This document shows, one piece after another, positions 15,966 to 15,983 of a stretch of DNA of 25,801 bases. The DNA comes from a virus (taxonomy: Duplodnaviria > Heunggongvirae > Uroviricota > Caudoviricetes). The stretch lies in IMG/VR virus record IMGVR_UViG_2693429554_000019; one strand, 5' to 3'. The translations under genes were made by a program, and so were the position numbers. How positions within the stretch are numbered: the first letter of the stretch is position 1; each line of letters begins with the position of its first letter. The notes under the pieces were generated by a model. The model was given only the letters and a program-made list of their open reading frames with translations. It was not told where the DNA came from and searched no databases.

Positions 15966-15983
15966 TGTGTGGTTGTCGGTACA
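15966..15983. promoter_or_regulatory. Candidate late-activator (Ogr/B-type) binding dyad TGT-N12-ACA in the P/O divergent region
   Basis: TGTGTGGTTGTCGGTACA in the 142-nt P-O intergenic region. Centre is about 55 nt from the P ATG and 87 nt from the O ATG. Confidence 0.4.

Follow-up and report, generated by a model that had tools for sequence, protein, structure and literature searches.

The window, by which we mean the whole stretch of DNA analysed here (25,801 nucleotides; IMG/VR record IMGVR_UViG_2693429554_000019), is from its gene content and sequence a P2/186-type prophage. Its P/O region is 99% identical to that of Escherichia phage 500465-1 (Peduoviridae, genus Wadgaonvirus; NC_049342) and about 98% identical to that of many Klebsiella prophages, and a Pfam search confirmed the identities of P, O and V. 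The genes and the regulatory elements proposed below are collected in Table 1. The early region is 186-like and not P2-like, as it encodes a CI with a Phage_CI_C domain, CII/CP76, Fil and a DinI/Tum-like protein. Between the DinI/Tum-like gene and Q (8380-12891) lie an IS110-family transposase gene and four ORFs, at the usual position of cargo or defence genes in P2/186-type phages; Pfam and PADLOC searches of these four ORFs gave no match. P and O are the first genes of two divergent late operons, V heads a further one, and the 25.8-kb window ends before the tail genes.

Table 1. Genes and predicted regulatory elements of the prophage (positions are those of the window).
Feature	Position	Strand	Remarks
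Early genes	1-8083		In order: integrase, 186-like CI, CII, Fil, then Dam methylase, replication protein A, DinI/Tum-like protein
IS110-family transposase gene	8380-9657		Follows the DinI/Tum-like gene
Four cargo ORFs	9842-10306; 10485-11210; 11394-12203; 12553-12891	plus; minus; minus; minus	Without known function; followed by Q
Gene Q (portal)	13128-14156	minus	4-nt overlap with the end of P
Gene P (terminase large subunit)	14153-15919	minus	Terminase_6N, Terminase_6C and Terminase_5 domains; first gene of the leftward late operon
Second perfect dyad match	15908-15925		TGTGGTGTTCATTGCACA; straddles the P start codon
P start codon ATG	15917-15919	minus	Transcription of P-Q is predicted to start at its A (15919)
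Predicted pP -10, TAGGTT	15926-15931	minus	-12 to -7 relative to the A of the P ATG
P/O activator dyad	15966-15983		Core TGT-N12-ACA, TGTGTGGTTGTCGGTACA; centre 15974.5; read directly
-35-like TTGTTT of pO	15995-16000	plus	Inside the conserved block cgTTGTTTCac (15992-16003)
Predicted pO -10, CAACCA or AACCAT	16018-16023 or 16019-16024	plus	34 nt past the dyad
Predicted transcription start zone of the O operon	16030-16033	plus	55.5-58.5 nt from the dyad centre; from P2/186 geometry
O Shine-Dalgarno GGAG	16050-16053	plus	8 nt before ATG 16062
Gene O (capsid scaffold protein)	16062-16895	plus	Phage_GPO, E 2e-113; first gene of the rightward late operon
O operon onward	S ends at 21869		N, M, L ... 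S
pV activator dyad	21874-21891		TGTATCAGCACTGATACA; centre 21882.5; 55.5 nt from V ATG 21938
Predicted pV -10, CAACCT	21926-21931	plus	-12 to -7 from the A of the V ATG
Gene V	21938-22516	plus	Followed by W, J, I

A sequence-only reading of this DNA had proposed a TGT-N12-ACA dyad in the divergent P-O region, about 55 nt from the P ATG and about 87 nt from the O ATG, with the same spacing to its start codon as a site upstream of V. The dyad was found exactly where it had been placed and, with its flanks, reads TTGT-N12-ACAA (15965-15984); the measured distances from its centre were 55.5 nt to the A of the P ATG (minus strand) and 87.5 nt to the A of the O ATG, and the spacing at V equalled that at P. 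The further description of the dyad as a single site applies to the strictly intergenic DNA and fails outside it, since a second perfect match lies across the P start codon. Most close relatives carry this second match; the diverged IMG/VR relatives have lost it, as have 22 of 25 related species. Because of this loss we treated it as incidental, which it probably is, and the missing conservation ruled it out as a P4-like second activator site. The motif count by itself was uninformative, given that the window holds four bare TGT-N12-ACA matches against 6.9 +/- 2.9 expected from shuffles (no enrichment; per-position chance 2.3e-4); the record of the relative NC_049342 gave ten against 10.1 expected. 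One of the four window matches lies at 5228-5245, inside a replication gene, while two of the four have the same offset, one from the start codon of P and one from that of V, each at the head of a late operon, and this offset is the one annotated in P2. It is position and conservation that go beyond chance, and by these sequence comparisons the P/O dyad is real.

Conservation was assessed in two collections, each of which returned about 600 or more matches to P, the best 80 of each being analysed. In the 80 IMG/VR relatives listed (41 distinct sequences; P 96-100% identical), TGT and ACA were invariant throughout, and the inner bases of the dyad differed (TGTACGGTAAACCACACA, ...AATCAC... and ...GAGAAC... 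among the variants). The second collection was dereplicated to one genome per species and gave 78 usable loci among the matches listed, with P 59-96% identical. Of these 78, 52 have a perfect TGT-N11-13-ACA with its centre 55-58 nt away from the P ATG (exactly 55.5 nt in 25), one locus stood at 62 nt and none at 63-77 nt, and the next distance class, the P2/186 type with a Shine-Dalgarno of the GCGAGG type, began at 77.5 nt. Several of the listed loci that have no strict dyad still read GTAGCCTTGC(C/T)GTC-ATG, which in sequence is the P2 -10 with its discriminator set directly against the ATG. The window and 24 GTDB loci, 25 distinct regions in all, were aligned without gaps, and the most conserved columns were TTGT, ACAA, GTAnnyT at -13 to -7, the ATG, and the O-side blocks CCGCAAmCATAAGG and cgTTGTTTCac, with spacers that drift. 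Comparison of the distance from dyad centre to P ATG in 17 annotated phages of about 15 genera gave a group at 55.5-56.5 nt (the window, Dagavirus, Yersinia phage 201.16 and SEN4) and a group at 71.5-103.5 nt that has a Shine-Dalgarno (P2, 186, PSP3 and others); the Burkholderia phages AP3 and phiE094 showed the same hexamer-to-ATG spacing as the window with dyads of 13-nt spacer. In the species collection, relatives from Betaproteobacteria, Pseudomonas and several other non-enteric Gammaproteobacteria (loci L092, L094, L095 and L135-L182) have TGT-N13-ACA in place of the N12 form, likewise at about 56-57 nt from the P ATG.

We compared this layout with the annotated late promoters of P2 and 186. 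In each phage a single activator site is annotated for the two divergent promoters (P-type and O-type), whose starts, mapped or annotated, lie 54.5-57.5 nt from it. The P2 GenBank record gives the P ATG at 2993, the P transcription start at 3016, the O transcription start at 3127 and the O ATG at 3167, and labels the feature 3057-3087 "activator binding site; pO, pP promoters"; the P2 18-mer TGTGTCAGTGATAAGCCA (3063-3080), a TGT-N12-CCA, is centred 55.5 nt from both starts. The 186 record has a B-protein site at 3798-3817 activating pV and p12, with p12 ending at 3753 and pV at 3865; these annotated ends lie 55.5 nt (P side) and 56.5 nt (O side) from the site, and the ATG of the P homologue is at 3730, leaving a 23-nt leader. 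On the P side both phages show the dyad, 34 nt, TAGCCT, 6 nt and the start; on the O side they show the dyad, 34 nt and GAAACT, then 6 nt to the mapped start in P2, and the 186 pV feature ends one base further. The match in position to these annotated sites bears out the earlier assignment of the dyad as a P2-family late-promoter site, which is itself a prediction. The -55 rule of these promoters is counted from the transcription start, not from the ATG.

In the window the P side runs in the same register: the dyad, 34 nt, TAGGTT, 6 nt and the A of the ATG, so that the -10 has the spacing of the TAGCCT of P2 (mapped start 3016) and of 186 (start 3753). Since the base equivalent to the mapped P2/186 start is the first base of the P start codon, the predicted leader length is zero, and since the P side shares the geometry of the mapped promoters, the P mRNA is probably leaderless, starting at the A of its AUG. 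The hexamer is TAGGTT or TATGTT among the 80 IMG/VR relatives listed, with TATGTT in the diverged ones; T-12, A-11 and T-7 are nearly invariant in the 25 distinct regions (24 GTDB loci and the window), and a TAnnnT ending 6-8 nt before the P ATG was found in 54 of the 78 listed species loci. No TTG is present at the -35 position of pP, and a scan of 15800-16150 found no sigma-70 consensus promoter; the hallmark of activator dependence, a weak -10 without such a consensus promoter, was seen at both pP and pO. Two structures turned up in this region and were set aside: an inverted repeat between the dyad and the pP -10 (AGCCTT-GAATG-AAGGCT, 15933-15949), considered as a regulatory hairpin, is lost in diverged relatives, and the stem of a terminator-like hairpin from the scan (15977-15990) is broken in relatives. 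At 15920 the window has an A at -1 of the P ATG (gcAATG), where the other 79 close relatives listed all have C (CATG).

This reading depends on where P begins, and sequence comparison makes the assigned start codon secure. The first in-frame stop before the ATG is a TAG at a distance of 12 nt, with no start codon in between; in codons 3-10 only synonymous substitutions separate P from diverged relatives; in alignment, the N-terminus differs in position by no more than one residue from those of P2 and 186 gpP; the conserved D-PRRQA motif lies upstream of the next Met; and the Pfam Terminase_5 (gpP-like) domain begins at residue 11. An ATG stood at the expected N-terminus in all 78 listed loci, as found by a script that considered ATG codons only, and it was often the sole start candidate after the in-frame stop. 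The sequence-only reading had suggested short leaders from the lack of an obvious Shine-Dalgarno sequence before P and V, and this is supported, since the P2 V transcription start is annotated at the ATG and the same geometry is found at V and P.

An alternative is that the dyad drives pO only, and that P is expressed from another upstream start or with a leader only a few nucleotides long, its translation relying on a weak Shine-Dalgarno (AGGU) or another leader-dependent route. GTAGGT upstream of P can indeed pair to some extent with the anti-Shine-Dalgarno (its AGGU stands 7 nt ahead of the ATG; duplex energy -5.6 kcal/mol, about equal to that of the O site), and because of this complementarity the window sequence taken alone may be read as a very short or alternative P leader. 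In some relatives the hexamer-to-ATG distance is 7 nt, which would allow a 1-nt leader, and leaderless translation has been reported to be weak or inefficient in E. coli (PMC4633059), which would be odd for an essential terminase. The duplex energy, moreover, did not separate leaderless-type from leadered-type loci, G-rich contexts pairing spuriously. Against this alternative, the complementarity vanishes in the relatives with TATGTT, and the AGG is likewise lost in those with TATTTT and TAATCT, whereas the three promoter positions named above hardly vary. In addition, the hexamer is homologous to the -10 of the mapped P2 pP and of 186 p12, with which it shares GTAGCCTTGCC; the predicted leaders are bimodal, at about 0 or at least 20 nt, with a single listed locus between (about 6 nt); no other promoter-like site was found in 15800-16150; and P2 and 186 serve both promoters from one site. 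We therefore consider a separate origin of the P message unlikely, with a small probability that should still be kept in mind, and favor a leaderless P mRNA from pP. The literature that we searched, in which the older work on P2, 186 and phiCTX is covered only in part, contains no description of a leaderless P or terminase mRNA.

On the O side, the P/O dyad would also have to serve pO, with a predicted start near 16030; here the window reads the dyad, 34 nt, CAACCA, 6 nt and 16030. The predicted -10 is in the same register as the GAAACT of P2 and 186, resembles the window's pV hexamer CAACCT and the hexamer CAACAT of the relative's tail-sheath promoter (pF), and falls within the conserved block CCGCAAmCATAAGG; it is a poor -10, and the exact start is uncertain by about 4 nt. 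TTGTTT lies 17 nt upstream of CAACCA, and TTGTTT-N17-CAACCA has three of six consensus matches in each hexamer. The block that holds it, cgTTGTTTCac, is as conserved as the dyad in the 25 distinct regions (24 GTDB loci and the window) and is missing from P2 and 186; it sits at -35 of the predicted pO, and TTGTTT is a putative -35 element. The same block contains an activator half-site TTGT, 30 bp from the TTGT of the dyad, and is a candidate for either a -35 element or an extra half-site. The O mRNA is predicted to have a leader of about 32 nt with the GGAG Shine-Dalgarno.

The V side repeats the arrangement of the P side, with the dyad, 34 nt, CAACCT, 6 nt and the A of the ATG, which predicts a leaderless V mRNA for the window. 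The dyad before V forms a perfect 8+2+8 palindrome (TGTATCAG CA CTGATACA) that begins 4 nt past the S stop codon; since no T-run follows it, it does not resemble an intrinsic terminator. The distance from dyad centre to V ATG was 55.5-57 nt in eight genomes. The region upstream of V was then compared in 80 relatives with V proteins of 97% identity or more, among which 22 different upstream sequences, falling into about 11 unrelated types, were distinguished. Each of the 22 has its own perfect TGT-N12-ACA, with the centre at 54.5-57.5 nt from the V ATG (at 55.5 nt in 16), and 18 have xAxxxT (A at -11, T at -7) at -12 to -7, the other four fitting only 1-2 nt further upstream. One geometry kept by unrelated sequences is hard to explain except by function, to judge from these comparisons. 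The S-V intergenic region (window 21870-21937; loci L185-L264) is a recombination or moron hotspot in which P2 carries orf30. Its types are mostly AT-rich in spite of a nearly identical V, and the window has a short 68-nt version without an inserted gene.

An Ogr-like ORF was sought in the 25.8-kb window by the pattern C-x2-C...C-x4-C, and none was found, the one match, in the tail-fibre region, being spurious. The relative NC_049342 encodes a 72-residue Ogr_Delta protein after gene D, at 29211-29429 of its record (Pfam E 9e-21), 67% identical to 186 B. The place of this gene after D is that of the activator gene in both P2 and 186. A search for dyads before late operons outside the window, which the sequence-only reading had put forward as a check, was borne out in the same relative by a third perfect dyad, TGTGTGAATAACGACACA, 85.5 nt upstream of the tail-sheath gene and followed by 34 nt and the pF hexamer. 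The sites lie where late operons begin, before P/O and V in the window and before the tail sheath in the relative, and at P/O the perfect dyad is centred 55.5 nt from the predicted start on both sides.

Binding by another regulator, either a host factor (CRP-like) or a different phage protein, would fit the lack of an activator gene in the window, and TGT...ACA half-sites are common to several regulators, e.g., PpsR/CrtJ of phototrophs with TGT-N12-ACA. PpsR, however, is not known from enterobacteria, and a CRP site, TGTGA-N6-TCACA, amounts to TGT-N10-ACA and not N12. The positional homology to the annotated Ogr/B sites of P2 and 186 and the Ogr_Delta protein of the close relative speak against any such regulator, and we hold this explanation to be very improbable. 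That the dyad is a chance, functionless short degenerate palindrome has in its favor the count of matches below expectation, with one in a replication gene and one non-conserved over the P ATG, yet it is the least credible explanation of all and by the conservation data already contradicted, as an offset repeated at P and V in spite of the low per-position chance, in 52 of the 78 listed species, in about 11 unrelated V-upstream sequences and at the relative's tail-sheath promoter, and invariant half-sites around variable inner bases, all go against it.

We thus consider it highly probable, from the sequence comparisons above, that the dyad is a single Ogr/B-family site shared by pP and pO, and we predict that the P and V mRNAs start at their AUG. 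In the mechanism that we propose, an Ogr/B-family zinc-finger activator would bind the dyad late in lytic growth, in the form of a symmetric oligomer. It would thereby bring the sigma-70 polymerase of the host to two divergent promoters, both weak, that lie at about 55.5 bp from the centre of the dyad. P2 Ogr acts through the alpha subunit of RNA polymerase, as known from rpoA109 and Ogr genetics. Transcription from pP would start at 15919 and yield a leaderless P-Q (terminase, portal) mRNA, in which translation of Q would be coupled to that of P via their 4-nt overlap, and transcription from pO would start near 16030 and yield the O-N-M-L... head and lysis mRNA with its leader of about 32 nt. 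One symmetric site could in this way serve polymerase on either side and turn on P-Q and O... together, with separate sites for V... and the tail operon; pV, of the same build, would start at the V ATG. Activator binding, both transcription starts and leaderless translation are what we infer here from sequence.

The shared P/O site and the leaderless V message are already on record for P2 and 186. What is added here is a predicted leaderless terminase mRNA in this prophage and in about two-thirds of the 78 listed P2-family loci. We lean, with some reserve, towards the broader view that most P2-family prophages of Gamma- and Betaproteobacteria make a leaderless terminase-portal mRNA from an activator-dependent promoter, as at the V operon; the leadered form of P2 and 186 would then be the minority and would differ by a 20-25-nt segment with a Shine-Dalgarno. 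If true, two of four late operons would depend on 70S-type leaderless initiation, and the ratio of terminase and baseplate to head and tail proteins would have a built-in translational setting. The analysis also provides a predicted map of the late promoters in Wadgaonvirus, a prophage type that is very common in E. coli and Klebsiella, with the P-Q/O site, the V site and a third, tail-sheath site outside the window. Few leaderless mRNAs are known in enterobacteria (PMC4633059). If the spacing argument is right, late mRNAs of this kind, predicted at V for all V-upstream variants examined, would be the rule rather than a curiosity of P2 gene V, and would offer a large natural set of leaderless mRNAs in these hosts. 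The register also suggests a simple pattern by which the starts of late genes could be called in P2-like prophages: dyad, 34 nt, xAxxxT, 6-7 nt, ATG.

Among known systems, the P4 promoters have a second Delta site near -18, whereas the second match in the window is centred near +3 of pP and is not conserved. Psid and PLL of P4 (Delta sites), which respond to the same activator family, reportedly carry TGT-N12-ACA at -55, in work by Julien and Calendar of 1995. Phage 186 resembles the window in its single site for both divergent promoters, and its TGTGTGGGCGGTTGTCCA starts with TGTGTGG like that of the window; it differs in the 23-nt leader on the P homologue and in an imperfect right half-site (CCA). 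The likeness to P2 pP/pO extends to one site between P and O, 34 nt to the -10 on both sides, TAGxxT, a pP without a -35, and the same operons. The P2 site is imperfect (TGT-N12-CCA), however, in comparison to the perfect TGT-N12-ACA of the window, and the P-O intergenic region measures 173 nt in P2 and 142 nt in the window. P2 has no counterpart of the conserved -35-like TTGTTT of pO, and its P message has a 23-nt leader with a GGCGAGG Shine-Dalgarno, while in the window this leader is missing and the base equivalent to the transcription start is the A of the ATG. P2 is itself cited as one source of the small number of leaderless genes known from work in E. coli (PMC4633059), and its record has V transcription begin on the A of the start codon. 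The P2 pV shares with that of the window a dyad about 56 nt from the V ATG, CAAyCT (CAATCT in P2) 6-7 nt before it and, by prediction in the window, a start at the ATG, although the P2 dyad upstream of V is TGT-N11-ACA or TGT-N12-CAA in contrast to the perfect one of the window. Only V is leaderless in P2, whereas in the window P is predicted to be leaderless as well.
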